A stretch of 12,061 nt of DNA, taken from the IMG/VR virus record IMGVR_UViG_2648501669_000026, one strand, 5' to 3'. Shown here piece by piece: positions 1 to 12,061 of this stretch (positions are counted from its first letter, which is position 1; each line of letters begins with the position of its first letter). This DNA is from a virus (lineage: Duplodnaviria; Heunggongvirae; Uroviricota; Caudoviricetes). The notes under the pieces are model-generated. The model made no database searches, was not told the origin of the DNA, and saw only the letters and a program-made list of their open reading frames with translations. The translations under genes and the position numbers were made by a program.

Positions 1-1041
1 ATGGCATTACCGTTAAGGGATTATTATCCAGTTACCCGCGCCGCGAATTTACTTGGCTGTGAAGTGAACGATTTGTTCCACTGGGCGAGAAGGGGGTATA
101 TAGAATTATATGCGTATATTGATTCGGCTTGTGGTGTTGTTCACATGCATGAGCTTGATTATTTTCTCCCATTTATTGATCAAGAGGTGAGGGGGTGGGT
201 TAAATCGTTGCAAGAAGAATCTTTACGGGCTGAACTGGATGATTTTGTGGATGAAAAAATCAACAGAACAATGGGCGTTTTTTGTAAGTTAAATTACCTG
301 AAAGAAGAAAGAATATACTTGTACTCTCTTTTGAACTTTCTGGCTAAAGGATGGGTTAATACGGGCTTCTGCTGGTTAAAAAATCTTAAAAATGAAGCCC
401 GGAAGAGTGTCGAAGATGCCTATTATTTCGAGGATGTATGCGCCGAACATTCTTTTAATCGTGATAGCGAATATATTGCAGAAGTGGGCGGTTTTTTTTC
501 TATTGATTCTCATAATATACTTGAAGATATTGAATTAAATGGATGTTGTATTTGTTCTGGTGAAAATTTTGAAGGTGTATATAGCGGGTTGTCTGTTTTT
601 CTTCCTCAAAGCAATAATATAAATCTAAACAAAAATAACCTGTTTTTATTCAAAGATGATTTTATCATTCTTAATGATTTCTCTTCTGAAAAAGAAGGTG
701 ATACAGGAGAGCAATTGAATAAAAAATATTTATATGGCTATGATATGGAGTCAATATATATTCAATTGAACGAGAAGAATACATTCTTTCAACCCTGCGA
801 TGAGTCGATTAGTAGACAAAATGAGCATAAAAAAGAATTAAACCCTCAGCTTGATAAAAAAACGCGAGTATCCAAAGCAGAAAGAGTATTTATACAATTG
901 GCAATAAAAGAACATTACCACGAGTTTATAGACAGTCCGGGAACCATTGCCAATATATTCACCGCCTTGTCTAAAAAGCATGAAAGCCCTTTCGATTTCG
1001 ATAAAAGCACCATAGGCAGGTGGATTAAAACCGCTCGCTAA
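1..1041 (+). CDS. Hypothetical protein; N-terminal excisionase/MerR-type helix-turn-helix fused to an AT-rich body of unknown function. May be 5'-truncated by the window edge.
   Basis: 346-codon open frame from position 1, stop TAA 1039..1041. Residues ~8-35 (YYPVTRAANLLGCEVNDLFHWARRGYIEL) match the HTH_17/excisionase pattern. GC is about 40-47% in the first ~180 nt and about 23-35% in the rest (hand counts of 60-nt blocks), against about 50% in neighbouring genes. No family recognised for the body. Confidence 0.6.
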   Translation: MALPLRDYYPVTRAANLLGCEVNDLFHWARRGYIELYAYIDSACGVVHMHELDYFLPFIDQEVRGWVKSLQEESLRAELDDFVDEKINRTMGVFCKLNYLKEERIYLYSLLNFLAKGWVNTGFCWLKNLKNEARKSVEDAYYFEDVCAEHSFNRDSEYIAEVGGFFSIDSHNILEDIELNGCCICSGENFEGVYSGLSVFLPQSNNINLNKNNLFLFKDDFIILNDFSSEKEGDTGEQLNKKYLYGYDMESIYIQLNEKNTFFQPCDESISRQNEHKKELNPQLDKKTRVSKAERVFIQLAIKEHYHEFIDSPGTIANIFTALSKKHESPFDFDKSTIGRWIKTAR

Positions 1042-1059
1042 CTATTTTTTAACAATTCA

Positions 1060-1095
1060 GGGCTTAATAAGTCTATTTGAGGGCTTATTAAGCCC
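1060..1095 (+). terminator. Terminator-like hairpin or operator between ORF1 and the alpA-like gene
   Basis: GGGCTTAATAAG (1060..1071) is the exact reverse complement of CTTATTAAGCCC (1084..1095), giving a 12-bp perfect stem. It is followed by a pyrimidine-rich tract (TCTCCTTCTTGCTTTG), not a clean T-run. Confidence 0.4.
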
Positions 1096-1167
1096 TCTCC
1101 TTCTTGCTTTGTGCGGATTGCCTGGGGAAAAATCATTCCCGAAAAGCTCAGGATACGGGAGAAAAAC

Positions 1168-1479
1168 ATGATACAGCGCATATTCATTCCACCAACTCCA
1201 GAACAACGCCGAGCCATACTCGCTGAGTATGGTTTTGACTACGAAGAACGCATCAGGGAAGACACGTGTAAAAAGATGACCACGCTTTCACGTTCCCGGC
1301 GTTGGGAACTGGAGGCGATTGGCGCTTTCCCTTCCCGCCACTCTTTGGGGCGTTGTTCGTGTACTTGGCTATTAAGCGATGTTTTATGGTGGTTGCGTAA
1401 CCCGCCAACTATTGCCGAGGCAAATAATCCGCATGAAAACGCCAAAAAGAAAAAGAGAGACGCTGATTTACTGGAGTAA
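1168..1479 (+). CDS. alpA: AlpA-family (Phage_AlpA-type) HTH transcriptional regulator with a ~35-aa N-terminal extension
   Basis: ATG 1168 is preceded by GGGAGA at 6-nt spacing. The C-terminal half (MTTLSRSRRWELEAIGAFPSRHSLGRCSCTWLLSDVLWWL) fits the AlpA signature LSRSxxxxxxxxGxFPxxxxLGxxxxxWxxxxVxxWL. A GTG at 1111 is a less likely alternative start. Confidence 0.7.
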   Translation: MIQRIFIPPTPEQRRAILAEYGFDYEERIREDTCKKMTTLSRSRRWELEAIGAFPSRHSLGRCSCTWLLSDVLWWLRNPPTIAEANNPHENAKKKKRDADLLE

Positions 1480-1484
1480 CATTT

Positions 1485-2360
1485 ATGGAAAACACAATCA
1501 CGGTATTAACACCCGTTTTTAAAAACTGCCCGGAAATGACCACGATTGCATCGTGGCCCCGTAGTTTTGTATATCAAAAGGGACAATCTGAAGTCTCTTT
1601 GGTTATTCGTCTGATTGATATCATTGCATCAAAATACATGCACAGACACGCCGAGGAATATTGCGATATTACAGGGTATTGCCTGCCGTTAGTGCATAAA
1701 ATCAGTGATGAAGAGATGCGGGATATTGCGGAAGGTTGCGATATTGCCATTACACGCATCCGGCAAAAAATCCGCGAAGCAGAAAATAAAGTGACTGCTC
1801 AGGAAAATAAAATCAGCGAATTGCGTAACGCTCAGTTACAGCCCACGTGTGCTGATAACCCTTATGGTGATCGGTATTCAGTAAAAGACGTTATCGAGCA
1901 TGAAATGCGTCTGCTTGAAAATGAGAAACGGAATTGCGAAAAGACACGCGCTGTCTGTGAGCAGGCTATACGCCTTATTGGTACGGGGAAAAACCTTTCT
2001 CATGATGGCGGTAATGCGTGGATTTTTGCCGCTTCGTTTGACGGACTGGAGCCGGAAACAAATCGCCGTATCAATATTTATAAAGAGATTATTTCGGCTG
2101 TCAGTGCGATCGTCACTTTACGCAATGAAGAAATTAAGCACATTCCTTATTCAGTAATGGCTAAATACAACCATTTACGGCAGGAATATATTAATGATGC
2201 ATTACGTACTCTGACGAAGCATTATTACAGCAACGGCAGTGAAACCATCCGCCATGCGATGACGCTACAGGAATACACCGGAATAAGTATGCCACGAATT
2301 GAACGGGATGCGGCGACCGCTTTGCTGTCTGTACATACCGAAAAGAAAGATATTGTTTAA
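1485..2360 (+). CDS. Hypothetical 291-aa protein with a central coiled-coil; capsid-scaffold-like only by position and size
   Basis: ATG 1485 lies 5 nt after the alpA stop, with GGAG 8 nt upstream. Heptad-like charged segment IRQKIREAENKVTAQENKISELRNAQLQ. No family recognised; it does not match my recollection of P2 GpO. Confidence 0.55.
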   Translation: MENTITVLTPVFKNCPEMTTIASWPRSFVYQKGQSEVSLVIRLIDIIASKYMHRHAEEYCDITGYCLPLVHKISDEEMRDIAEGCDIAITRIRQKIREAENKVTAQENKISELRNAQLQPTCADNPYGDRYSVKDVIEHEMRLLENEKRNCEKTRAVCEQAIRLIGTGKNLSHDGGNAWIFAASFDGLEPETNRRINIYKEIISAVSAIVTLRNEEIKHIPYSVMAKYNHLRQEYINDALRTLTKHYYSNGSETIRHAMTLQEYTGISMPRIERDAATALLSVHTEKKDIV

Positions 2361-2370
2361 GGGGAAATGT

Positions 2371-3423
2371 ATGTTTTTTAATATTAATGACCTGAAAGAT
2401 AAAGCCGGAAGCGTGCTTGAAAATATCAATATTTCATCTCCAGCGGTGAACGAAAATGAAACTGACATTAATAGCGCGCTTGCAGAAAAAGATCTTTACG
2501 CACGCATCAGTGCATACACACAAAAAAATCCGTTTGTGCATTTTATTTCGCCCTCTAACTGGCTTTCCGGGCAAATAAAATACCTGTCAGTTAATCCGCA
2601 TCAGTCCGCTATTAACCTTATTGGGGATGCGCGCTTATCCACCGGACGCGCAGAGGAAGGACGCTTTAGCCGTGCCATGGATATTAAAGGCTCTCCGATT
2701 GAATGCTATGAGATGGACTCATGCGAATATCTCGACTGGATTAACTTGGTTGTGATGGCCAATGTGGCGAATGACGACAAAAACCGCGATGCACTGCTGG
2801 GGATTTTGTGTGGCTATCTGACCAGCAAAATTTATCTGGACGATCTGCGGATTGGCTTTAACGGCAAGTCAGCGGCAACCTTCACCACACCGGACACCAA
2901 CCCGAACGGCGAGGATGTTGCGCCCGGCTGGCATGAAATTGCCAGGAAGGCAAGCGAAGGACGACAGATTATCAGCGATGCCATTACGCTGGGCGCAGGT
3001 GGTGATTTTCCGGGGGTAGATGCACTGGCGCAGCATCTGATTAAAACGAAAATTGCCGCACAGTGGCAGAACGATCCACGCCTTGTGGTGATGGTGGGAT
3101 CAGAACTTGCAGCTGCCGAACGTCTGCGTCTTTTCAGCACCGCAAACGGCGCAGGAGATACCGAAGCCGCCAGCGCATGGGGAAGCACCATTGCCGGGCA
3201 TTTTGCCTTTGTGCCACCGTTTATGCCGGGTAAACGTCTGGCTGTGACCACACTCCCGAACCTGCTGATTAACATCATTGAAGGCTCTTACCGCACAGAG
3301 TTCGATATGAACAAAGACACCAAACGCCTGAACATGCGGGCATGGCGTCATCAGGGCTACGGGCTGGCGGATGTGAATCTTTACGCGGCAGTGGATGAGG
3401 GCGCGATTACGCTTAATCCGTGA
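2371..3423 (+). CDS. Putative P2 GpN-family major capsid-like protein (tentative)
   Basis: ATG 2371 with AAGGGG 5-6 nt upstream; the ORF-track start at 2299 overlaps the preceding gene and is rejected. Collinear motifs GFNG, NP-x3-DVAPGW, GAGGDFPGVDAL and DPRLVVMVGSEL match P2 GpN as I recall it (GFNG, DVAVGW, GKGGDYASLDAL, DPDLVVIVGRQL). Size 350 aa versus 357 aa for GpN. Based on memory only. Confidence 0.55.
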   Translation: MFFNINDLKDKAGSVLENINISSPAVNENETDINSALAEKDLYARISAYTQKNPFVHFISPSNWLSGQIKYLSVNPHQSAINLIGDARLSTGRAEEGRFSRAMDIKGSPIECYEMDSCEYLDWINLVVMANVANDDKNRDALLGILCGYLTSKIYLDDLRIGFNGKSAATFTTPDTNPNGEDVAPGWHEIARKASEGRQIISDAITLGAGGDFPGVDALAQHLIKTKIAAQWQNDPRLVVMVGSELAAAERLRLFSTANGAGDTEAASAWGSTIAGHFAFVPPFMPGKRLAVTTLPNLLINIIEGSYRTEFDMNKDTKRLNMRAWRHQGYGLADVNLYAAVDEGAITLNP

Positions 3424-3440
3424 TGGCTGGATAAGAAAAC

Positions 3441-3460
3441 GGCCCGCAAGATGGCGGGCC
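3441..3460. terminator. GC-rich hairpin after the capsid-like gene, looks bidirectional
   Basis: GGCCCGC (3441..3447), 6-nt loop, GCGGGCC (3454..3460), 18 nt past the stop. A-rich upstream and no T-run downstream on +, so the U-tract is on the - strand side. Confidence 0.35.
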
Positions 3461-3574
3461 GCTAACCACAAAAGGAAAAATCTACGAATCTACAGTTCGG
3501 GAATGATTATGAACTTTTTACGTACAGAAATCAATCACTCAGCGCAATCACGCAAAAATAATTTGCAATATTAC

Positions 3575-3604
3575 TTGACTCGCTTTTTTGTCATGGCGTA
3601 TCGT
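3575..3604 (+). promoter_or_regulatory. Candidate sigma70-type promoter for the early operon
   Basis: TTGACT (3575..3580), 18-bp spacer, TATCGT (3599..3604). Paired AATCAC half-sites lie just upstream (3530..3550). Sequence-only prediction. Confidence 0.3.
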
Positions 3605-3633
3605 TTGCCCGCACCTCATAAAGCGGGTGCCGG

Positions 3634-3817
3634 GTTTGACAGCCTGATTGTTAGAGCGGGTAGCCGCTATATTTCCGTAATGCGGTTTTTTTGTGCCCGT
3701 AATTCCACCCTACCCCGTATTATGGCGGGGCGTAATGGGGGAGCCTTTGCGCTCGCTGGTTTCTCTAACGCCAGTCTGTCAACCCTGTTACGTCCCGCCA
3801 CCATGTTTGACAGCGTG
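3634..3817 (+). promoter_or_regulatory. Untranslated leader with a 13-bp repeat triplet, P4 seqA/seqB/seqC-like
   Basis: GTTTGACAGCCTG (3634..3646) and GTTTGACAGCGTG (3805..3817) are direct repeats, 12/13 identical. CAGTCTGTCAACC (3772..3784) is an imperfect inverted copy (11/13 pairing). A short hairpin plus T7 run sits at 3680..3700. No SD-supported ORF between 3465 and 3856. Confidence 0.3.
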
Positions 3818-3856
3818 CTGGCGAGACTCCGTAAATCAGTTAGAGGAGCCGCCAAA

Positions 3857-4030
3857 ATGGCTATATCAACACGCCCTGATTTTATCTGGCGCTTTATGCA
3901 GTGCCACGGTAAAAATATTCGCCTTCATACCGTTACCGCTGCCAGTGAGCGCGAAGCGCGCGCCATGCTTCCGGCATCCCGTCTGGTCTTTGTTGCCCGT
4001 ATCCGTGTCCGGGAGGCGTGCCATGTTTAA
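3857..4030 (+). CDS. Small 57-aa protein, candidate Icd-like (host cell division inhibitor-like) family
   Basis: ATG 3857 with GAGGAG 8 nt upstream. The segment FIWRF...VTAASEREARAMLP...LVFVARIRV resembles the Icd-like small proteins I recall from P4-type prophages. The ORF-track extension back to 3395 overlaps the upstream gene and hairpin and has no SD. Confidence 0.5.
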   Translation: MAISTRPDFIWRFMQCHGKNIRLHTVTAASEREARAMLPASRLVFVARIRVREACHV

Positions 4031-4211
4031 GCTCCTTATCACCCTGATTAACTGCCAGAACGGCGACGTTCGCCAGTTTGTTCATGCCGAGGAATACCCG
4101 ACCTGTGATGATGCGTTGCGTGCTGCCCGTCGCATGGAGTACACCCGCGCCAACAAACAGGGGAAATTAACCCACAAATGCACGGTAAACATTATGGAAA
4201 TGGAGGGGTAA
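4023..4211 (+). CDS. Hypothetical small protein (62 aa)
   Basis: ATG 4023 overlaps the upstream stop (ATGTTTAA), with GGGAGG 6 nt upstream. It is the SD-supported C-terminal part of ORF-track frame 3693..4211. Confidence 0.5.
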   Translation: MFKLLITLINCQNGDVRQFVHAEEYPTCDDALRAARRMEYTRANKQGKLTHKCTVNIMEMEG

Positions 4212-4213
4212 CA

Positions 4214-4402
4214 ATGTACGAAATTCATATTAAATTGTGTAATGTGATTACGGGAGAAGAAGCAAACTATCGCGCGCCACTTAAATATAAATCGAGAAAA
4301 GAAGCGGCAATTGATGTATTCAGGTATGCAGAAGAAATTTCATCTAAATACCAGGGAGCAGAAGAAGAACTCACAGTATCAGCGGTGGAGGCAGAGCAAT
4401 GA
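4214..4402 (+). CDS. Hypothetical small acidic protein (62 aa), AT-rich
   Basis: ATG 4214 with GGAGGGG 5 nt upstream. About 35-40% GC by hand count. Stop overlaps the next start (ATGA at 4399..4402). Confidence 0.5.
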   Translation: MYEIHIKLCNVITGEEANYRAPLKYKSRKEAAIDVFRYAEEISSKYQGAEEELTVSAVEAEQ

Positions 4403-4617
4403 AAACCCGTTCAACATCCCGTAAAAATAATGGCAGTGGTGAAAAACGTTTCTTTGTGCTGGGTTATGCCGTTAATAAGCGCGGGTTAACCAAACATGCA
4501 CATGCAACGGTATACGGAACGGGGCCGGGCGAAGCCATACGCCGCGCAGCCGAAGGACTGGAAGAGCTGGGAATGACACATTTCAGGGCGTTGAAGGTTA
4601 CGCAGCTTTCTGCCTGA
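4399..4617 (+). CDS. Hypothetical small basic protein (72 aa)
   Basis: ATG 4399 with GGTGGAGG 7 nt upstream; 4-nt overlap with the preceding ORF suggests translational coupling. Confidence 0.5.
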   Translation: MKTRSTSRKNNGSGEKRFFVLGYAVNKRGLTKHAHATVYGTGPGEAIRRAAEGLEELGMTHFRALKVTQLSA

Positions 4618-4684
4618 TTCCCGAATTACCAACTGATAACTGAATTCAATTTATATTTCGGCCTTAACGGTCGGGGAGTTTTTT

Positions 4685-4990
4685 ATGTCTGAAAATCAGA
4701 ATTACGCAAATCTTTTACATAAAGAATATGTTGGTTTTTTTACAGAGGATGCAAAAGAAGATCTCACAGATGTAATTAGTCTCGTCAACCTTATATCTAT
4801 CATGTTTGATGAAAGAAGCTGCGGAGTGGGTGCAGAAATTACCAATAAAGATATTACATCTCTGTCTAATATTATTAGTCGGGAATTACAATCAATAAAA
4901 TCAGGTATGCATCTTTCTGGCGGCATTTTTTCATGGCGTCAGGCTGAAGCAGCAGGGATTGCCCGGAAACAAGAAGTAACGAGTAATTAA
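4685..4990 (+). CDS. Hypothetical 101-aa protein, AT-rich cargo-like gene just upstream of the primase
   Basis: ATG 4685 with GGGGAG 7 nt upstream. About 25-37% GC versus about 50% in flanking genes. No recognisable motif. The - strand ORF 4702..4926 overlapping it is treated as antisense artefact. Confidence 0.55.
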   Translation: MSENQNYANLLHKEYVGFFTEDAKEDLTDVISLVNLISIMFDERSCGVGAEITNKDITSLSNIISRELQSIKSGMHLSGGIFSWRQAEAAGIARKQEVTSN

Positions 4991-4996
4991 TAAAAG

Positions 4997-5019
4997 CCCA
5001 CTGCAAAAGGTGCAGTGGG
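4997..5019 (+). terminator. Stable hairpin between the 101-aa ORF and the primase start; weak terminator or translational control element
   Basis: CCCACTGCA (4997..5005), loop AAAGG, TGCAGTGGG (5011..5019), a 9-bp perfect stem. No T-run downstream on +; the 3' arm abuts the primase SD GGAGGG (5020..5025). Confidence 0.3.
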
Positions 5020-5032
5020 GAGGGATTTATAT

Positions 5033-7702
5033 ATGAAACATAACACCAGAAAAGAGATTATTAACCGTCTTATTCGTGATTACAACTTTAAAGAAGAAAA
5101 TAATTATCTTCGCTATGGTGTTTGTCCGCAATGTGGAAAGAAGGAACTGTTTACCAGTCTTGAGAGGCCGTACATCGTACACTGTGGCCGCGAAAATAAA
5201 TGCGGTGCAGACCTGCTGACCAAAGAACTTTACCCGGATGTGTTTTCGTCATGGTCAGATCGCTATATCAGTACGAAAGACGATCCATACGCAGCGGCGG
5301 TAGCTTATCTTCAGGAGGCGCGCAATATTGCTGTGGAGCCACTGAAAGGGGCATTTACTCAGGAGCGATACCAGGACAAGGAAAGCGGCGAACAGGCCGC
5401 TACTGTGCGTTTTACGCTGGCTGACGGCGTGTGGTGGGAGCGCATCATAGACCGACCGGAACGCTTCGCTCGCAAGGCGAATTTTTCCGGCAGTTACAAG
5501 GGGCTGTGGTGGGCTTATCCGGGAGCGGATTTAAGCAAGGCCAAAGAAATCTGGATTTGTGAGGGTATCTTTGATGCCATCAGCCTTAACCAGAATGGCA
5601 TTGCGGCCGTTTCTGTCATGTCTGCCGTGAACTACCCTGATAAATCGCTGGAAGAACTGGCGAAGCTGTGCGGGGATAATCCACGCCCGGTTATCGTGTG
5701 GGCGCTGGATAACGGGCGTGCGGGTGAGCGTTACGCGAAAAAACATGCAGAACGCAGCGCCGAAGACGGCTGGAGAACGGCGGCAGCATTACCAGGTAAA
5801 AACAGCAATAAACGCGACTGGAATGATTTACACATCGCCGGAAAGCTGCGTGGCCATGATGTGAAAAGATATCGTTATTACGGTGATTTATTGTTGGCGA
5901 AATCGCCGAGAGATAAGGCACTAATAATGTTTTCCTTTCGTGAGCGAAAGGAGTTTTATTTTCCCTTTGATAACCGTATTTTCTGGTTCAAGCTGGATAT
6001 TGAGCGCCATATGAAGGCTGTTGAGCGTGTCATTAATGAGCGAAATGTTGACGAAAATGAAGCGCGCAAAATTGCACTTAAGGAATCCGGTGCAGTAAAA
6101 GAAATCGCAAACTGTAACCCAGTACCGCTTTATTACATTCGAAACAATGACACGGATGAAGCATGGTATTACTTCCGTGTTACGTTCCCGGATGGTGCGA
6201 CGGTGAAAAACACCTTTACATCAGGTCAATTAACATCCGCATCTGAATTTAAAAAACGCCTGTTGCATGTGGCAAAAGGTGGTATTTATACCGGAACGAC
6301 TGCGCACCTTGATGCATTAATAAAAAATGACCTTCCCGCAATAAAAAATGTTATCGGTCAGGATTTTATCGGATACAACAAAGAGATTGGCGCATGGCTG
6401 TTTAATGATGTCGCGGTTTGTAATGGTAAAACCTACGAAATCAATGAAGAGGATTATTTTGAAATTGATGGCATAAACGCAAAACCATTGAATAAAAAAC
6501 CAATATTGCAGATTAACTATAAAAAACCGGATGAATTTACAACGTCCTGGGTGGAAGATCTCTGGCTGGCGTTTGGTGAAAAGGGAATTATTACCCTGGC
6601 CTTCTGGCTGGGTTCGTTGTTCAGCGAACAAATCAGGCAGAAAAACGCATCTTACCCCTTTCTTGAGATTACCGGAGAGCCTGGAACGGGTAAAACAACG
6701 CTGATTGATTTTTGCTGGCGTTTGTGTGGCCGTGACAACTATGAAGGTGTTGATCCAACCAAAGGATCGGAATCAGGCTGGAAGCGAACTTTTGGACAGG
6801 TCGCCGGATTACCTGTTGTTCTGATTGAGGCAGACCGGGGGGACAATGCGCAAAAAAGAGGTGCGTTTGACTTTGATAACCTGAAAAGCCTCTATAACGG
6901 CGGTGGTATTGGGGTACGTGGTGTTAAAACTAATGATAACGCCACATATGACCCTGTTTTTAAAGGGGCTGTCGTGATTGCGCAGAATGCCACGGTAAAT
7001 GCCTCATCGGCAATTATCGAGCGTCTGGTACGTATATACACCGATAAAAAACGCCACTCACCAGATAGCCGACTGGCAGCAAAACGGCTGGAGCTTTACC
7101 CCGTTGAGCAGGTATCAGGTTTTATCCATCGGGCAGTAAGCCAGGAGCGGGCGATTATGGATTTGTTTATGGCACTCTCGGATCCTGAAACAGCCCGCCT
7201 TTACAGTTGCGAAAATATTCGCCATCAGCGTATTGCCAAAAATCACGCGCAACTAATTGCACTGGTCAGGGTGCTGAAATGCGTTATTGATATCCCGGAT
7301 GAATGGCTTGATGCCACATGTCTGGAACTGGAGCGAATGGCAGAGGAACAGGCTAAAGCGGTAATGGATGACTTGCCGGAAGTGATGGCGTTCTGGGAGG
7401 CGTTCGACTATCTGGACGGCATAACAGCATACGGCGTAAATCATTTTGGCAAGGGACGGCAGAATGAGTTTGCCGTCAGTATCCCGCAACTTGAGCAGGT
7501 TGCCGCCGTTCACCATGTGAAGATCCAAACCAATCCCGAAATGATAAAGCTTCTCAAGGCTGGCCGTTCTCGATCGCTGATTGGATACAAGCCCGTCCGT
7601 AGCGAGGTATCCAGACAGGCGAACGCCGGGAGGGGGATAGCCGAGGCCAGAGAGAAGGAGGTATTGAAATGCTGGATATTTAGTAACAAGGAGGGGGCTT
7701 AA
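5033..7702 (+). CDS. Bifunctional DNA primase/helicase (N-terminal zinc ribbon, TOPRIM primase, P-loop NTPase), P4 alpha-like replication protein
   Basis: ATG 5033 with GGAGGG 8 nt upstream; the ORF-track GTG at 5015 lies inside the hairpin. Zinc ribbon CPQCG...HCGRENKCG. TOPRIM motifs WICEGIFDAISL and VWALDNGRAGERYA. Walker A GEPGTGKTT and Walker B-like VVLIEAD. 889 aa. Confidence 0.9.
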   Translation: MKHNTRKEIINRLIRDYNFKEENNYLRYGVCPQCGKKELFTSLERPYIVHCGRENKCGADLLTKELYPDVFSSWSDRYISTKDDPYAAAVAYLQEARNIAVEPLKGAFTQERYQDKESGEQAATVRFTLADGVWWERIIDRPERFARKANFSGSYKGLWWAYPGADLSKAKEIWICEGIFDAISLNQNGIAAVSVMSAVNYPDKSLEELAKLCGDNPRPVIVWALDNGRAGERYAKKHAERSAEDGWRTAAALPGKNSNKRDWNDLHIAGKLRGHDVKRYRYYGDLLLAKSPRDKALIMFSFRERKEFYFPFDNRIFWFKLDIERHMKAVERVINERNVDENEARKIALKESGAVKEIANCNPVPLYYIRNNDTDEAWYYFRVTFPDGATVKNTFTSGQLTSASEFKKRLLHVAKGGIYTGTTAHLDALIKNDLPAIKNVIGQDFIGYNKEIGAWLFNDVAVCNGKTYEINEEDYFEIDGINAKPLNKKPILQINYKKPDEFTTSWVEDLWLAFGEKGIITLAFWLGSLFSEQIRQKNASYPFLEITGEPGTGKTTLIDFCWRLCGRDNYEGVDPTKGSESGWKRTFGQVAGLPVVLIEADRGDNAQKRGAFDFDNLKSLYNGGGIGVRGVKTNDNATYDPVFKGAVVIAQNATVNASSAIIERLVRIYTDKKRHSPDSRLAAKRLELYPVEQVSGFIHRAVSQERAIMDLFMALSDPETARLYSCENIRHQRIAKNHAQLIALVRVLKCVIDIPDEWLDATCLELERMAEEQAKAVMDDLPEVMAFWEAFDYLDGITAYGVNHFGKGRQNEFAVSIPQLEQVAAVHHVKIQTNPEMIKLLKAGRSRSLIGYKPVRSEVSRQANAGRGIAEAREKEVLKCWIFSNKEGA

Positions 7703-7704
7703 GT

Positions 7705-8706
7705 ATGTCGATCAGAAAGATGGATGATGGGCGATGGCTGCTCGATATCAGGCCACAAGGGGCGTACGGCAAACGGATACGTAAAATTTTTGTCAGGAAA
7801 GGGAGTGCAGAGGCCTTCGAACAATATATTTTACAGAATTTCCATAACAACCCATGGCTGGCTAAACCTGCTGATCGGCGGCGATTATCAGAGCTGCTTG
7901 ATACATGGTGGATGCTTGATGGCCGTAACCAGGCTTACGGCGATACCTACAGGATCCGGCTGGAGAAAGTGATTCGTGAAATGGGAGATCCGCGCGCCAG
8001 CCAGATGACGCAAAAATTTATGCTTGAGTATCGGTCAGAGAAATTACAGGCCGGCTTAATGCCATCCAGCATTAATCGTGACTTGTGCGTTCTGTCTACC
8101 ATGTTCACGGTGCTGATTGAAGCAGGGGTCTTTCACAACCCGAACCCTGTGCGCAGTATACGCAAGCTAAAAATTCAGAATACAGAGATGGCCTTTCTTT
8201 CTGATGATGAGATTGAACGGCTTCTTGAGCGACTGGAGGGGGATGCGCGTCGTGTTGCCATTCTGTGTCTTTCTACTGGTGCCCGATGGAGTGAAGCATC
8301 GGAACTACGTGGAGAGCATATCGTTGGCAACCGTGTGACGTTTTTTAACACCAAAAACGGAAAATCCCGCTCGGTTCCTGTGGCGGATTCGGTCGTGCCG
8401 CTGATTAAAACCCGTCGGACGGGGTTGTTGTATCAGGTTGATTATCTGGAGTTCCGGGAGATTCTTCAGGAGGTTAAGCCGGATTTGCCGAAGGGGCAGG
8501 CTACGCATGTTATGCGTCATACATTTGCCACACACTTTATGATGAATGGTGGGAATATCGTTACATTACAACGGATTCTTGGACATGCGACTATCCAGCA
8601 AACGATGACTTATGCGCATTTTTCTCCCGACTATCTGGCGGATGCCATGAGGTTTAACCCGATAGCTAACATGGCATTCACTGAACAAAAAGAGCCAGCA
8701 GAGTAA
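7705..8706 (+). CDS. int: Tyrosine recombinase / integrase, P2 Int-like
   Basis: 333 aa. Catalytic-domain motifs AILCLSTGARWSEA, HVMRHTFATHFM and LGHATIQQTMTYAHF; N-terminal DGRWLLDIRPQG...GKRIRK. Close to P2 Int in length and motifs as I recall it. ATG is 2 nt after the primase stop and shares the SD AAGGAGGGGG. Confidence 0.92.
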   Translation: MSIRKMDDGRWLLDIRPQGAYGKRIRKIFVRKGSAEAFEQYILQNFHNNPWLAKPADRRRLSELLDTWWMLDGRNQAYGDTYRIRLEKVIREMGDPRASQMTQKFMLEYRSEKLQAGLMPSSINRDLCVLSTMFTVLIEAGVFHNPNPVRSIRKLKIQNTEMAFLSDDEIERLLERLEGDARRVAILCLSTGARWSEASELRGEHIVGNRVTFFNTKNGKSRSVPVADSVVPLIKTRRTGLLYQVDYLEFREILQEVKPDLPKGQATHVMRHTFATHFMMNGGNIVTLQRILGHATIQQTMTYAHFSPDYLADAMRFNPIANMAFTEQKEPAE

Positions 8707-8736
8707 CCCGCAGAACGCTACATTCACAGCAAAAGA

Positions 8737-8761
8737 GGTCAGTTTTCCACTGGCCTTTTTT
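8737..8761 (+). terminator. Rho-independent terminator after int
   Basis: Stem GGTCAGT (8737..8743) / ACTGGCC (8749..8755) with one G-U pair, loop TTTCC, then six T (8756..8761). Confidence 0.7.
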
Positions 8762-8953
8762 GTTGGCCAAAGCCAACGGTAACAGCAATGCAATGGTGGC
8801 CATATTGCAGCGGTGCCGCCATCAATTTTTTTGCTCTCCCTTCCTGATTATCAGGAAAGAGTCAAATAGTGGCGAGATACATTTTAATCACAGAGAGTTA
8901 ATGAGAGTGAGACATAGTGAGTGAGTTTAATTAACATTTTAAAGGGTTGCGCT

Positions 8954-9277
8954 AAAATCCGGGGGGGGGTGCGGAAACGGGTTACAAAGGTTACAAACAG
9001 AAAAATATATTATATATCAATATATTATAATACATTTAAAAGGTTACAAACGGGTTACAACAGGGTTACATGTAACCTTTATGTAGTGGTTACTGTTGGT
9101 TACAGGTTAAATTTATAATTAATTGATAATTAATCTGTTTTTTAGAGCTGTAACCTCGTGTAACCTTCTGTAACCTCAAAAAGGTTACAAGCAATTTCAT
9201 TTAAAATCATGATGTTAATGTGTGTTTTAAGGAGCTGTAACCTTTGTAACCCGTTTCCGCACCCCCTACCGGATTTT
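8954..9277. repeat. Iteron array bounded by a long inverted repeat; putative origin of replication of the element
   Basis: 13 exact heptamers. GGTTACA on + at 8980, 8989, 9042, 9053, 9064, 9098, 9183; TGTAACC at 9071, 9149, 9159, 9169, 9236, 9245. Three are phased at exactly 10 bp (9149/9159/9169). Palindrome GGTTACATGTAACC at 9064..9077. 30-bp perfect inverted repeat 8966..8995 / 9236..9265, extending to 42 bp (8954..8995 / 9236..9277) with 2 mismatches. AT-rich core 9001..9040 (2 G/C in 40 nt). Confidence 0.6.
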
Positions 9278-9415
9278 GAGGCAGAGCCCAAAAAACACTG
9301 GTAAGACCAGAAACATAAAATTAACACAACAAAACTGAATGAAATGACTGTTACCCCCCCGTGATGACGGGTAAAATCAGGTCAGGCAATCAGCGTTTAT
9401 TCATGAGGTGCCGGA

Positions 9416-9670
9416 GTGCGCAGACAGAAAGCGCGGTGTTTTTGCTGTGGTGAGCGCGCAGTGATTGAAAAGACCGTCTGGAAAGATGATCGGTTTGCTG
9501 ACGTGTATTACCGTTGCAAGCGTCTTGAGTGCGGACATACCTGGGTAATGAATCTGACCTACTCGCACACGCTGACCCCCAGCGGACTGGAGAACGGCGT
9601 GTTGAAGCTGTTGATCGAACGAATGCGCCCGGAGGAAAAACAAATGGCGCTGGAACTACTACAGGCCTGA
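9416..9670 (+). CDS. Ogr/Delta-family zinc-finger transcriptional activator-like protein
   Basis: GTG 9416 with GAGGTG 5 nt upstream. C-x2-C, 22 residues, C-x4-C (CFCCGERA...CKRLEC), the same cysteine spacing as P2 Ogr as I recall it. 84 aa. Confidence 0.7.
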   Translation: MRRQKARCFCCGERAVIEKTVWKDDRFADVYYRCKRLECGHTWVMNLTYSHTLTPSGLENGVLKLLIERMRPEEKQMALELLQA

Positions 9671-9687
9671 GGATACCAGCCAAAAGA

Positions 9688-9715
9688 AAACCCGCAGCTT
9701 TTACACGGCGGGTTT
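9688..9715. terminator. Hairpin downstream of the ogr-like gene, bidirectional-looking
   Basis: AAACCCGC (9688..9695), 12-nt loop, GCGGGTTT (9708..9715). The better U-tract is on the - strand (TTTTCTTTTG from 9681..9690). Confidence 0.4.
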
Positions 9716-10206
9716 GTGATGTTCATGACTGCAGATAGGGTGCCGTTCCGGCCTTTACCCTGGCAACCGATTGACGGGGAAGTTGACTTCCCCGTCGCGG
9801 TTCCTTACTGTGTAGACTTACATTGTAAGAATGCCGCAATTTCCGTTCCTGCAAACCTGAATCGCAACTCACAAGGTGATGTGTGGAGGATCCAGATTAT
9901 CGCTACTGCGGTTAAACACAGTAGCAGGGTTTTTAACGGAATTTGCGTCATAGCGCTTGCTCCTTTGGTGGAGAGGCGCTAACCTTCTACTTGTCAAGGT
10001 ACGAAGTGTTAGGGCCTCGGGTTAACATTAAAGTTGACTCGGGGCCTTTCCACATCTGGCCTTCGGGTATTCCCTCCGACCATCAGCCGAAAGGCACCCG
10101 CAGCGATTCTAGCCTGGTTGCCATACCCGCATCAATCACCCGCCACATCGCTTTATCGCTCGCAAATCAGCAACCTGACGCTACTTTACGTCGCTCTGTC
10201 CGGCAT

Positions 10207-10618
10207 TTTACGTCACCTCATCGCACCGCGTTTTATTCGTCCCTTCTGACCGTTCTGCCTCTCCCTGTTGTGAAGTTTTTTTCAGTTTCATTTTGTTCGC
10301 CGTATGCCGTCAGGGCGCGTCACGTCTGGATTTTCGCGAAATGCTGCCGGGCGTGAAATTCTGCCACCGGGCCAAACAGCCTCACGTAAAGTATGAAAAA
10401 GCCTTAAATATCATGAAAGTAGTCACGCGCAGCACAAAAAAAGAACTGAAAACCGGGAAGAAAAATTGCAAAAAATTTCACTGAATGAAATTTTGCTTTT
10501 GCACGAATCCCCAGAACTGACGCACCCTGCCAGCTATTTTTTCACACCAGAAAACTGAAAAAGTGTTTCGACACGAAACCCGCGGGTTGGAGGGGGTAGC
10601 GCGGTTTACGTCACCTCA
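10207..10618. repeat. 14-bp exact direct repeat TTTACGTCACCTCA (two copies) with several shorter related copies
   Basis: Exact copies at 10207..10220 and 10605..10618, 398 bp apart. Related TTTACG(T/C)(C/G) cores at 10185..10193, 10622..10632, 10636..10644 and 10740..10748; inverted copy at 10383..10390. Confidence 0.6.
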
Positions 10619-10690
10619 CGTTTTACGTCACGCCGTTTACGCGGCGTATGCATACAGCGCCAGAACGGCACACAGAAAGCTGATTCGGGG

Positions 10691-10726
10691 AGAAAATACG
10701 AAAACGCACGGCCTGAACCGTGCGTT
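10691..10726 (-). terminator. Rho-independent terminator for the 169-aa - strand gene
   Basis: 9-bp stem AACGCACGG (10703..10711) / CCGTGCGTT (10718..10726), 6-nt loop, then a U-rich tract on the - strand (complement of 10691..10702), 42 nt past the stop. Confidence 0.45.
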
Positions 10727-10767
10727 AATCAGGGCGCGTTTTACGCGGTTTTATGCGGGGCGTTTAT

Positions 10768-11277
10768 TCAGACCAGACCGTAGTCATTTGCGGTCGATTC
10801 ATCGTTGCTGGCAAAGCTGGCAGCCGCCTGAGTCATGGCTGATTTTAGCGGCGATGCTTCTGCTTCAAGCAATGTCCTGAGCTGGCTTAGTGGAATGCGC
10901 TGGCTGAACTCTGCCAGCCCTTCGCTAAAGCTAAATTGCTTTGGTGACTCATCACCACACGCAATCCATGCGAAGTCCTCAGCATCACCACGCTGCTTTA
11001 ACTCAAAGAAGCACGGGAAGTCAAACCTCTGGCAGAAGCGTTTAGCTCCGTCGATGGTGGAGAAGTAAGCCGCTTCCAGTCCGCCCTGTTCGTCGGGCAT
11101 GGCGACCACATACCTTACAGGCGCGCGCTCTTCCAGTTCCTGTGCAATTCCGGCGCAGAACGTCGGCGTATAGCCGCTGTTCGCAATCCTGTTCATCGCT
11201 CCCCGCCAGCCGAATGGGTTGTTTTCTGGTGTGCCGGCTCTGGTGTCGGTGCCTGTGAATATAGTTTTATTGCTCAT
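10768..11277 (-). CDS. Hypothetical 169-aa protein, monocistronic, divergent from hpt
   Basis: ATG at 11277..11275 with AGGA about 10 nt upstream. The only long ORF in an otherwise ORF-poor region; protein-like composition. No family recognised. It is not Gcd, which is the upstream neighbour of hpt in E. coli K-12. Confidence 0.6.
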   Translation of the reverse strand: MSNKTIFTGTDTRAGTPENNPFGWRGAMNRIANSGYTPTFCAGIAQELEERAPVRYVVAMPDEQGGLEAAYFSTIDGAKRFCQRFDFPCFFELKQRGDAEDFAWIACGDESPKQFSFSEGLAEFSQRIPLSQLRTLLEAEASPLKSAMTQAAASFASNDESTANDYGLV

Positions 11278-11524
11278 CTTTGTTTAATCCTGTTGATTGG
11301 TTGTCGACGTTGCGACCTGGCTGAATCATAACAGTGAGTAGAGCGGGCGCAAGTTGGTGTGAGGTGACACATAAGGTACAATTTGCGGCCTTAAAGTGTT
11401 CTCATGTGTTCTGGTGTTGTCTGCCTGCGATATTGTTTTGTGTATCAATTGGTGTATCAATATCGATATTTGCAGAGAATTAAAACGAAATTAAATTCAC
11501 TGAAATCAATGTGATAGGTTATTG

Positions 11525-12061
11525 ATGAAACATTATGTAGAAGTAATGATCCCCGAAGCGGAGATTAAAGCGCGTATCGCCGAACTGGGTCGTCAGATTA
11601 CTGAGCGTTACAAAGACAGCGGCAGCGATATGGTGCTGGTGGGTCTGCTGCGTGGCTCATTTATGTTTATGGCGGACCTGTGCCGTGAAGTTCAGGTATC
11701 TCATGAAGTCGACTTTATGACCGCCTCCAGCTACGGTAGCGGCATGTCCACCACCCGTGATGTGAAAATCCTCAAAGATCTGGATGAAGATATCCGTGGC
11801 AAGGACGTGCTGATTGTTGAAGATATCATCGACTCGGGGAATACACTGTCGAAAGTGCGTGAGATCTTAAGCCTGCGCGAACCGAAGTCGCTGGCGATTT
11901 GTACGCTGCTGGATAAACCGTCCCGTCGTGAAGTGAACGTCCCGGTAGAATTTATCGGTTTCTCGATCCCGGATGAGTTTGTGGTGGGTTACGGCATTGA
12001 TTACGCACAGCGTTACCGTCATCTGCCGTATATCGGCAAAGTGATTCTGCTGGACGAGTAA
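11525..12061 (+). CDS. hpt: Hypoxanthine phosphoribosyltransferase
   Basis: The protein [52 protein letters not shown]...[17 protein letters not shown]...GKVILLDE is near-identical to E. coli Hpt as I recall it, including the PRTase motif [16 protein letters not shown] 11525; the ORF-track start at 11522 is TTG. Stop at the window end. Confidence 0.95.

Follow-up and report, generated by a model that had tools for sequence, protein, structure and literature searches.

A probable satellite island at Escherichia coli hpt with a PICI-type backbone and modules matched to P2-like phages

We analyzed a 12,061-nucleotide stretch of viral DNA, IMG/VR record IMGVR_UViG_2648501669_000026 (the window, which means this whole stretch throughout). 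The window is probably the larger part of a satellite island that has the backbone of a phage-inducible chromosomal island (PICI) and modules tuned to a P2-like helper phage of the Evevirus-like Peduoviridae. It covers about 89% of an island of ~12.9 kb, and the insertion point of that island is the first codons of Escherichia coli hpt. A sequence-only reading made earlier had described a helper-dependent, satellite-type island at this non-tRNA site, with a gene order running from an AlpA-family regulator to an Ogr-type protein, and each listed part was present at about the place it had been given. Four parts were missing from that reading: a 346-aa open reading frame (ORF), a hok/sok locus, a cos-like segment, and a 169-aa ORF. 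Almost all genes of the window are on the plus strand; hok/sok and the 169-aa ORF are on the minus strand. Features are listed in Table 1.

Table 1. Features of the window, in order of position
Feature	Position	Strand	Basis or remark
346-aa cargo ORF	1-1041	+	Slot between outer integrase and alpA; G+C 0.31-0.40
AlpA-family regulator/excisionase, 103 aa	1168-1479	+	PF05930 6e-6; phrog_2790 4.7e-30
291-aa ORF, directly upstream of capsid gene	1485-2360	+	No family match
P2-family (GpN-type) major capsid protein homolog, 350 aa	2371-3423	+	PF05125 6.5e-44; phrog_70 3e-54
isrK-like leader RNA element	3611-3692	+	RF01394 49.0 bits (gathering score 50); terminator-like hairpin; overlaps a weak c4-a1b1 match
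C4-type antisense (immunity) RNA	3718-3805	+	RF01695 72.8 bits (gathering score 45); predicted fold -45 kcal/mol
Target of C4 loop 2	3839-3851	+	Covers Shine-Dalgarno of Icd-like ORF, 6 nt upstream of its ATG
Icd-like small ORF, 57 aa, first gene of early operon	3857-4030	+	NF033153 phage_ICD_like 2.9e-14
Four small ORFs	4023-4211, 4214-4402, 4399-4617, 4685-4990	+	Same set annotated in relatives
Primase-helicase (zinc ribbon, Toprim, Walker-A domain)	5033-7702	+	Toprim_2 1.5e-12; phrog_1139 1e-300; Walker A GEPGTGKT
Inner tyrosine recombinase, 333 aa	7705-8706	+	PF24624 3.7e-29; PF00589 1e-18; R, HxxR, H, Y motifs visible
Probable replication origin	8954-9277		Two opposed GGTTACA arrays around an AT-rich centre (~9100-9140)
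Ogr/Delta-type zinc-finger late-gene activator, 84 aa	9416-9670	+	PF04606 1e-10; phrog_603 1e-26
hok/sok-type toxin-antisense locus	9805-10099	-	Hok ORF 9805-9951 (PF01848 8e-9); sok/mok region 9946-10099
Noncoding cos-like segment	10536-10726		Common to candidate helper prophage; probable cos/packaging site
169-aa conserved ORF	10768-11277	-	Right end of this late-module type
attR identity block	11525-11548	+	First 24 nt of hpt ORF, rebuilt by island; single copy in window
hpt, host gene	11525-12061	+	Cut off from native promoter by island

Island boundaries and insertion site

In E. coli K-12, which served for comparison, gcd and hpt are adjacent with nothing inserted between them. K-12 intergenic and hpt DNA matched the relatives of the window on the left of the island through a 24-nt block, and on the right of the island from the same block. 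The left copy, attL, was found in relative L025, where it adjoins gcd, ~1.4 kb before the sequence homologous to window position 1; the island is therefore ~12.9 kb long. In the colinear relatives L001, L002, L025, and L026, which are 92-95% identical to the window, the gene of an outer integrase (402-404 aa; Arm-DNA-bind_3 domain) stops 3 nt short of the homolog of position 1. What lies upstream in these relatives is this integrase and gcd, not phage morphogenesis genes, whose presence there would have spoken for the end of a full prophage. The sequence-only reading had begun the island at position 1 and had compared it with P2, in which ogr is the last gene before the att site. Three points have to be revised: the island starts at the outer integrase by gcd, the outer enzyme defines the insertion and the one in the window is an internal second integrase, and both hok/sok and the 169-aa ORF lie between ogr and the att site.

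The hpt insertion site and hpt PICIs are already published; 49 'hpt PICIs' have been mapped by TIGER, with the crossover core TATGAAACATA (PMC10111431). Among 5426 complete E. coli genomes, a match to some part of the window was found in all but one, mostly with identities of at least 99%. This near-universal match is presumably hpt, because the island core is present in few genomes. That core (3502-9308, bounded by the module breakpoints) was found at 80% coverage or more in 66 of the 5426, and the other genomes examined had an empty site. The region is thus far from universal in E. coli, and this distribution, along with the uninterrupted gcd-hpt junction of K-12, upholds the description as a satellite-type island. 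Terminase, portal, and tail genes were absent from the window and from the whole islands of the relatives by ORF listing and family scans, as the earlier reading had said of the window. Neither lysis genes (by gene content and family scans) nor a tRNA gene was found in the window.

Insertion leaves hpt without its native promoter and ribosome-binding region, for which island DNA at 11278-11548 supplies the replacement. A consensus scan of the right end of the island found no sigma-70-like promoter for hpt on the plus strand, and the count for the whole window equaled the shuffle expectation.

The same array of genes was found with a different outer integrase at tRNA-Arg (argW) in E. coli (L003 and L004), and at the equivalent site in Yersinia enterocolitica (L007-L009), where the capsid protein is 87% identical to that of the window. 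Across these relatives in E. coli and Yersinia, at two att sites, no gene had an internal stop, and pairwise ratios of nonsynonymous to synonymous substitution rates (dN/dS) were 0.05-0.38. The strain ETEC4067 holds two satellites of the family, one at argW (L003) and one at hpt (L020), with distinct outer integrases, inner integrase alleles, and C4 loop alleles.

Late region and candidate helper prophage

The Ogr of the window was 89% identical in amino acid sequence to that of an Evevirus-like prophage in strain FHI_NMBU_10. Homologs of four window genes were present in the Evevirus ESSI2_ev239, at 42% identity for capsid, 51% for primase, 47% for the inner integrase, and 43% for Ogr. DNA matching the cos-like segment lay inside a full P2-like prophage in FHI_NMBU_10 and in AJ1, between hok and a Vgr-like baseplate gene. 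This prophage, the candidate helper, is about 36 kb long and has Evevirus-like late genes; its capsid protein is 45% identical to that of the window. It was present in 7 of 9 complete genomes with this satellite type, compared to 48 of 5426 (0.9%) overall. The co-occurrence had a Fisher p of 1e-13, or 6e-8 when near-identical isolates were collapsed and counted by lineage.

The cos-like segment and the prophage were 87% identical over 192 bp, with a peak of 95-100% in 10560-10640 and flanks of 50-70%. The core of the segment (10545-10660) contains GGGTTGGAGGGGGTAGCGC and reads ...CACGAAACCCGCGGGTTGGAGGGGGTAGCGCGG, followed by TTTACGTCAC repeats. In all, the segment matched unannotated DNA in about 40 other E. 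coli genomes, FHI_NMBU_10 and AJ1 among them. In a MAFFT alignment, which we treated as weak, the right end of the virion-derived ESSI2_ev239 record fell inside the aligned core; between the same record and the noncoding parts of the window, nothing was found by BLAST or Smith-Waterman. The segment is probably the cos or packaging site of a helper, copied into the satellite. The record itself (L006, NC_049392.1) ends at 29110-29203 in a Nextera adapter, CTGTCTCTTATACACATCT..., and then poly-A, which is untrimmed library sequence.

A second copy of the repeat in the cos core (10605-10631) was seen at 10185-10220, 398 bp upstream of the core, and consists of TTTACGTCACCTCA, an identical 14-mer, plus TTTACGTCGC. 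No second copy was noticed on reading the corresponding region of the candidate helper prophage. The extra copy may be an additional terminase-binding site or the remnant of a duplication.

Other signals of the P2/P4 system were searched for. The P2/P4 cos 19-mer GGCGAGGCGGGGAAAGCAC had no match in the window at up to 3 mismatches, nor did the P4 end sequences. The P2-type late promoter TGT-N12-ACA occurred once in the window (1568, inside the 291-aa ORF) and in no intergenic position, and was dropped as a candidate; none was found in the terL/scaffold intergenic region of the helper. The cos region of the UTI89 prophage did not match the window, but it did match the sister satellite type.

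In these sister satellites (L001, L003, and L020), the core from 3502 to 9308 is common to the window at 94%, and the late region is different. It comprises a 60-aa Ogr, a 236-aa coiled-coil protein, and a 423-aa capsid protein only 22% identical to that of the window, with mazEF in place of hok and the 169-aa gene. The sister Ogr (51%) and capsid (36%) are closest to another P2-like prophage, located at serS-dmsA in UTI89 and ST131. Between ori and ogr, the sister satellites contain about 240 bp of the portal-proximal noncoding region of this prophage, a cos region; within it, GGTGACGGGGGAACAGCAC has 14 of 19 positions in common with the P2 cos overhang. Since distinct late regions are matched to distinct phages, there are at least two interchangeable late cassettes, each fitting one helper lineage.

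The remaining parts of the late region are hok/sok and the 169-aa ORF. The DNA of the hok locus was 77% identical to annotated hok loci at the ends of P2-like prophages, and the Rfam sok match scored 42.7 bits, under the gathering score of 59. Relatives of the 169-aa ORF in E. coli and Yersinia had 76-100% amino acid identity and dN/dS of 0.10-0.23; it had no match in Pfam, PHROGs, NCBIfam, PADLOC, or PDB.

These results also bear on whether a helper is needed at all. The island could be a helper-independent integrative element, either a plasmid-like one kept by hok/sok or a defense island, that uses phage-like genes to interfere with P2-like phages. In favor are its own module for replication, a toxin-antitoxin locus, and variable slots for cargo; its helper-like integrase and Ogr could be decoys, and the capsid homologs of PICIs can act in interference rather than transfer (PMC6092414). 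Yet the cos-like segment is common to the prophage and conserved more than its flanks, the sister type carries the cos region of another phage, the co-occurrence with the prophage is strong, and the near-identical late modules of Yersinia and E. coli imply horizontal spread. We consider helper independence unlikely, although it is the strongest of the alternatives.

Capsid gene and its candidate partner, a 291-aa protein

Two structural-looking genes had been proposed from sequence. The second is a capsid gene (PF05125), and also matched P2 gpN (7jw1) with an E value of 4e-13; the first, the 291-aa ORF, had no family match. Identity of the capsid protein to Evevirus-like phage capsids (42-45%) extends over residues ~69-348 only, and the N-terminal ~70 aa are specific to the family. 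Full-length relatives were found in E. coli, Yersinia, Salmonella, and Klebsiella oxytoca, and the gene context read for Yersinia was this island. A scan of genome contigs with the capsid protein returned only relatives of ~45% identity, none of them a close relative of the island.

An exhaustive profile search with the 291-aa protein recovered 6 clusters among 1.84 billion representatives, all from its own family. There was no PDB sequence match and no similarity to GpO or Sid. The AlphaFold model was all-helical and of low confidence (predicted local distance difference test score 49), too poor for a fold search. The gene had a dN/dS of 0.15-0.38. The product, encoded directly upstream of the capsid gene, is a candidate scaffold or size-determining partner of the capsid. 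The ratio of the island (12.9 kb) to the helper (~36 kb) is 0.36, near that of P4 to P2.

Primase-helicase and probable replication origin

Full-length homologs of the primase were found in the Evevirus noted above, in Ralstonia RSY1 (43%), and in phiCTX (orf37, 42%). The similarity to P4 alpha was confined to 22.6% identity over 190 aa of the C-terminal region (E value 1e-3), and P4 was not among the 41 phage records matched by the primase at an E value of 1e-5 or better. The primase is of the Peduoviridae (phiCTX/Evevirus) type and not P4 alpha.

Downstream of the primase and inner integrase genes, 13 of the 14 copies of GGTTACA in the window fell within 8980-9251, where 1.1 copies would be expected in the entire window. 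The region is bounded by a 42-nt inverted repeat (8954-8995 and 9236-9277; 95% complementary) and has a G+C of 0.36. The inverted repeat is conserved together with the primase and showed no covariation with the inner integrase allele. Both the layout and the place downstream of pri match the origins of PICIs and of Staphylococcus aureus pathogenicity islands (SaPIs), and in Gram-negative PICIs ori follows pri (PMC10111431). This palindromic array is probably the origin of replication.

Inner integrase

The integrase and Ogr of the window had been called P2-type, and their homologs bear this out: the 333-aa Int, like Ogr, is truly of P2-phage type. Its gene starts 2 nt after the primase stop codon, and is translationally coupled to it, in every relative. 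The protein has 88-89% amino acid identity to the integrases of P2-like prophages at serS-dmsA in UTI89 and A36; identity rises to 92% in the core-binding domain and drops to 65% over the first 60 residues. The gene is intact, with a dN/dS of 0.06-0.15. Alleles of the inner integrase are 50-60% identical to one another among the satellites, whereas the flanking primase is 98% identical, and the nearest relative of each allele is a different phage integrase (88%, 72%, and 63%). Inner integrase alleles are swapped among satellites, and the gene was captured from P2-like phages.

No cognate attP for this enzyme was found in the window by core, arm repeat, or similarity to the prophage. With up to 3 mismatches allowed, the window did not contain AAAGCGCCTGCGGGCGCTTT, the att core in the serS terminator that belongs to the nearest phage integrase. 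The arm repeat of that integrase matched once, with a single mismatch (8796-8804), which is chance level (2.1 expected), and similarity to the serS-dmsA prophage breaks off at 8667, still within int. The candidate helper of A36 is itself located at serS-dmsA, with an integrase 99% identical to the UTI89 type. The inner integrase may act in trans on the att sites of the helper, offer an alternative route of integration, or resolve multimers. Action in trans is proposed because no attP of its own was found and because its core-binding domain is 92% identical to that of the helper.

An internal phage-type integrase raises the question of whether two elements lie side by side, namely a PICI that runs from the outer integrase to the primase and a small P2-derived integrative element with the inner integrase, an attP-like region, ogr, and hok, which that integrase would have inserted. 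In favor of this, the inner integrase is a genuine enzyme of phage type, a noncoding region and then ogr/hok come after its gene, which is also how P2-like phages look at their att end, and module breakpoints do exist at 3502 and 9308. Its coupling to the primase in every relative argues otherwise, as does the iteron origin that follows it, which is conserved with the primase and not with the int allele. The island contains no further att repeat in its interior, it lacks the att core that goes with the closest phage integrase, and the composite moves as a unit among hpt, tRNA-Arg, and Yersinia. Purifying selection on intact genes at all three locations speaks against chance-adjacent elements, and we regard this explanation as improbable.

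The same selection speaks against a decaying P2-like prophage, left behind after the loss of morphogenesis genes, and the degenerate prophage that the earlier reading had offered as one option was not borne out. The capsid, primase, integrase, Ogr, and hok of the island do all have homologs in P2-like phages. A remnant would hardly be found as the same 13-kb set without internal stops, at the dN/dS values given above, at two att sites and in another genus. The att repeat that bounds the island belongs to the outer integrase, which is not of P2 type; the PICI-type int-alpA head and the C4/Icd leader are missing at that position in related phages; and the phage-derived genes differ in their nearest phage (Int 88%, capsid 45%, Ogr 89%). 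We give a prophage remnant very little credence.

Leader RNAs and early operon

The leader between the capsid gene and the early operon (~3430-3856) had been described as noncoding. It is not empty: it holds the isrK-like and C4-type RNA elements. In relatives the isrK-like element scored 52.1 bits with RF01394, and the leader of P4 itself scored 60.8 bits; the CI RNA of P4 scored 74.9 bits with the same C4 model used for the window. The PLE leader of P4 has the same Rfam pair, isrK and C4, in the same order. The leader is the genuinely P4-like part of the island. Of the parts that had been called P4-type, it is the one that stands; the primase is not alpha, and neither sid nor psu is present.

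The second hairpin loop of the C4 RNA, TGGTTTCTCTAAC (3757-3769), is complementary over 13 nt to GTTAGAGGAGCCG at the Shine-Dalgarno of the Icd-like ORF. Four loop/target alleles were found among the window and its relatives: CTCTAAC with GTTAGAG in the window (allele A), CCTTGATT with AATCAAGG (allele B), CTTTGTC with GACAAAG (allele C), and CTTCTAC with GTAGAAG (allele D). The compensatory changes are at the same position, and the pairing is supported because the target changes to match the loop in each allele. In ETEC4067, the satellite at argW has allele C and the satellite at hpt has allele B, which is what heteroimmunity would permit.

Two further similarities were seen in the leader. 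The first part of the C4 RNA (3745-3760) is complementary over 16 nt, with G-U pairs allowed, to a site inside the Icd-like ORF (3941-3956), and L001 shows the same; the site may serve as another antisense target, comparable to a2/b2 of P1. The isrK-like element begins with 36 nt (3611-3646) that are 92% identical to L024 7286-7321, at an 'ash family' pseudogene of the candidate helper prophage, a possible sign that helper and satellite have related elements of RNA control.

The small ORFs that follow are tightly packed: the first overlaps the Icd-like ORF, the second begins 2 nt past the stop codon of the first, and the third overlaps the second. None of the four had a family match in Pfam, PHROG, or PADLOC/NCBIfam scans, or a match in PDB.

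Cargo slot and AlpA

The 346-aa ORF at the head of the window had no Pfam, PHROG, NCBIfam, PADLOC, or PDB match, and only 3 homolog clusters were found. Its slot is variable; relatives have other low-G+C proteins of ~350 aa there (L002 10827-11891 and L020 8116-9168), and similarity among the slot genes of the window, L002, and L020 is limited to the first ~60 nt. A strong hairpin terminator after the ORF (1059-1096) is 82% identical over 50 nt to L024 23319-23368, just downstream of the M15 endolysin gene of the candidate helper prophage. The start codon of alpA was placed by comparison with the 104-aa annotation in relatives, and AlpA is 31% identical to P4 Vis/ORF88.

Comparison with known satellites

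Judged by gene content and order, Gram-negative PICIs are the closest published frame for the island, one that the sequence-only reading had left aside. Such PICIs have a terminal int followed by alpA in one orientation (PMC6092414, PMC10111431), and here the outer int is seen in L001, L002, L025, and L026. As in the EcCICFT073 type, an Icd-like/early operon leads to pri, and an iteron origin, here predicted from sequence, follows pri. The size is within 10-20 kb, there is a dedicated att (the hpt core TATGAAACATA), and lysis and tail genes are absent. A capsid homolog is the most common late gene of Gram-negative PICIs, some of which also contain secondary internal int genes (PMC10111431). 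Unlike the island, the characterized E. coli PICIs use lambdoid helpers, capsid homologs of the lambda E type, and packaging redirection by Rpp or TerS; no terS or rpp homolog was found in the island. The island instead has a GpN-type capsid, Ogr/Delta, a Peduoviridae-type primase, a P2-type inner integrase, and a P2-like cos-like segment.

The P4-like core set of SatelliteFinder consists of sid, psu, alpha, delta, alpA, and epsilon/ash (PMC10085698). Ogr/Delta and alpA are present in the island and alpha is not. No window protein matched Sid or Psu by tblastn, and neither was found by Pfam or PHROG. There was also no tblastn match to P4 epsilon, and the small ORFs are without family match, so a divergent analog is possible. 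Compared directly, P4 (L021) and the window shared no match to sid, psu, epsilon, cII, gop, or beta and no DNA similarity. Like P4, the island has an isrK and C4(CI) leader, an early operon that ends in a primase-helicase, an AlpA/Vis homolog, an Ogr/Delta-family activator, a candidate helper of the P2 family, and a genome of about 13 kb, one third that of the helper. Unlike P4, it has no Sid/Psu external scaffold and instead has its own capsid gene with an unrelated 291-aa partner, and it has two integrases. Membership in the P4 family itself, with P2 exploited in the manner of P4, is refuted by the lack of sid, psu, a detectable epsilon homolog, alpha, P4 DNA similarity, and the P2/P4 cos 19-mer, and is the least credible of the alternatives; the functional analogy stands.

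Three other systems share single traits with the island. SaPIbov5 (Ccm) and Pasteurella PmCI172 likewise encode a homolog of the major capsid protein of the helper; these homologs are associated with small capsids, and the helper of PmCI172 is a myovirus (PMC6092414). Their capsid lineages and hosts are different, and small capsids would be a predicted trait here. Capsid-forming PICIs (cf-PICIs, such as EcCIEDL933) make at least part of their own head, as the island may, but also encode portal, protease, head-tail connectors, TerS, and TerL; of this set, only the capsid homolog was found here. In the immI locus of P1/P7 (c4 RNA-icd-ant), a leader antisense RNA loop pairs with the icd ribosome-binding site as proposed here, and allelic loop/target pairs define immunity specificity. 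The operon downstream is an antirepressor operon in P1/P7 and a satellite replication operon in the island.

Literature searches found no named family that combines PICI, Ogr, and P2 capsid. We found no earlier account of a PICI-type satellite in which Ogr, a GpN-type capsid, the cos of a P2-like phage, and a second integrase of helper type occur together.

Proposed life cycle

The following life cycle would fit the satellite island with a PICI-type backbone. In quiescence, the C4-type RNA, released by processing of the early leader, would pair with the ribosome-binding site of the Icd-like ORF and keep the early operon (small ORFs, primase-helicase, and inner integrase) off. Covariation supports the pairing, and repression is proposed by analogy with P1 c4/icd and P4 CI. 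With an active helper, AlpA and the outer integrase would excise the island at the 24-bp hpt core, as in PICI biology, and the primase-helicase would fire the palindromic GGTTACA iteron origin. The satellite Ogr may cross-activate late genes in the manner of P2 Ogr and P4 Delta. The GpN-type protein and the 291-aa partner would co-assemble with the portal, terminase, and tails of the helper into capsids sized for a genome about one third of the ~36 kb of the helper. Helper terminase would then package the DNA through the common cos-like segment, and hok/sok would stabilize the island in the host.

Several points weigh against this reading. The left end of the island is beyond the window, so the outer integrase and attL are placed from relatives. 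The cos assignment is indirect: the segment is not beside portal and terminase genes as in P2, a comparison by eye with the P2 cos 19-mer gave agreement at about 12 of 19 positions, and apart from the weak end alignment to ESSI2_ev239 no phage record contains it. Closely related isolates (STEC306, 307, and 308) are included in the co-occurrence counts. The capsid protein is only 45% identical to that of the candidate helper, so co-assembly with helper parts is not assured. The least secure step of the model is that the capsid and the 291-aa protein may direct small heads, because PICI capsid homologs can be dispensable for transfer, as is that of the model PICI EcCICFT073 (PMC6092414, PMC10111431). 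Induction, excision, packaging, and capsid size are all steps that we infer.

Implications

For fifty years, to our knowledge, P4 has stood alone among the parasites of P2-like phages in being well understood. PICIs of E. coli have been studied with lambdoid helpers. The island suggests a PICI-type chassis that was refitted for P2-like helpers through the capture of Ogr, a capsid gene, an integrase, and a cos-like site from helpers. The cos-like site and the late genes would be swapped as one cassette, and exchange of the inner integrase is a separate event. Tentatively, such islands could represent a third way of parasitizing P2-like phages: a family with a PICI backbone and exchangeable parts that match the helper, in which late genes and cos travel as one cassette and the inner integrase acts in trans on helper att sites. 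The exchangeable parts would be Ogr, cos, the GpN-type capsid with its private partner, and the helper-type integrase, with at least two versions of the late cassette for different Peduoviridae lineages.

Standard P4-like search rules would probably miss such islands, because most of the P4 core set is lacking. The islands displace the native promoter of hpt, a housekeeping gene, and their C4 immunity alleles would let two such satellites coexist in one cell. They offer a natural system for the study of helper switching, of capsid size set by a satellite capsid rather than by a Sid-like external scaffold, and of the role of a second integrase.

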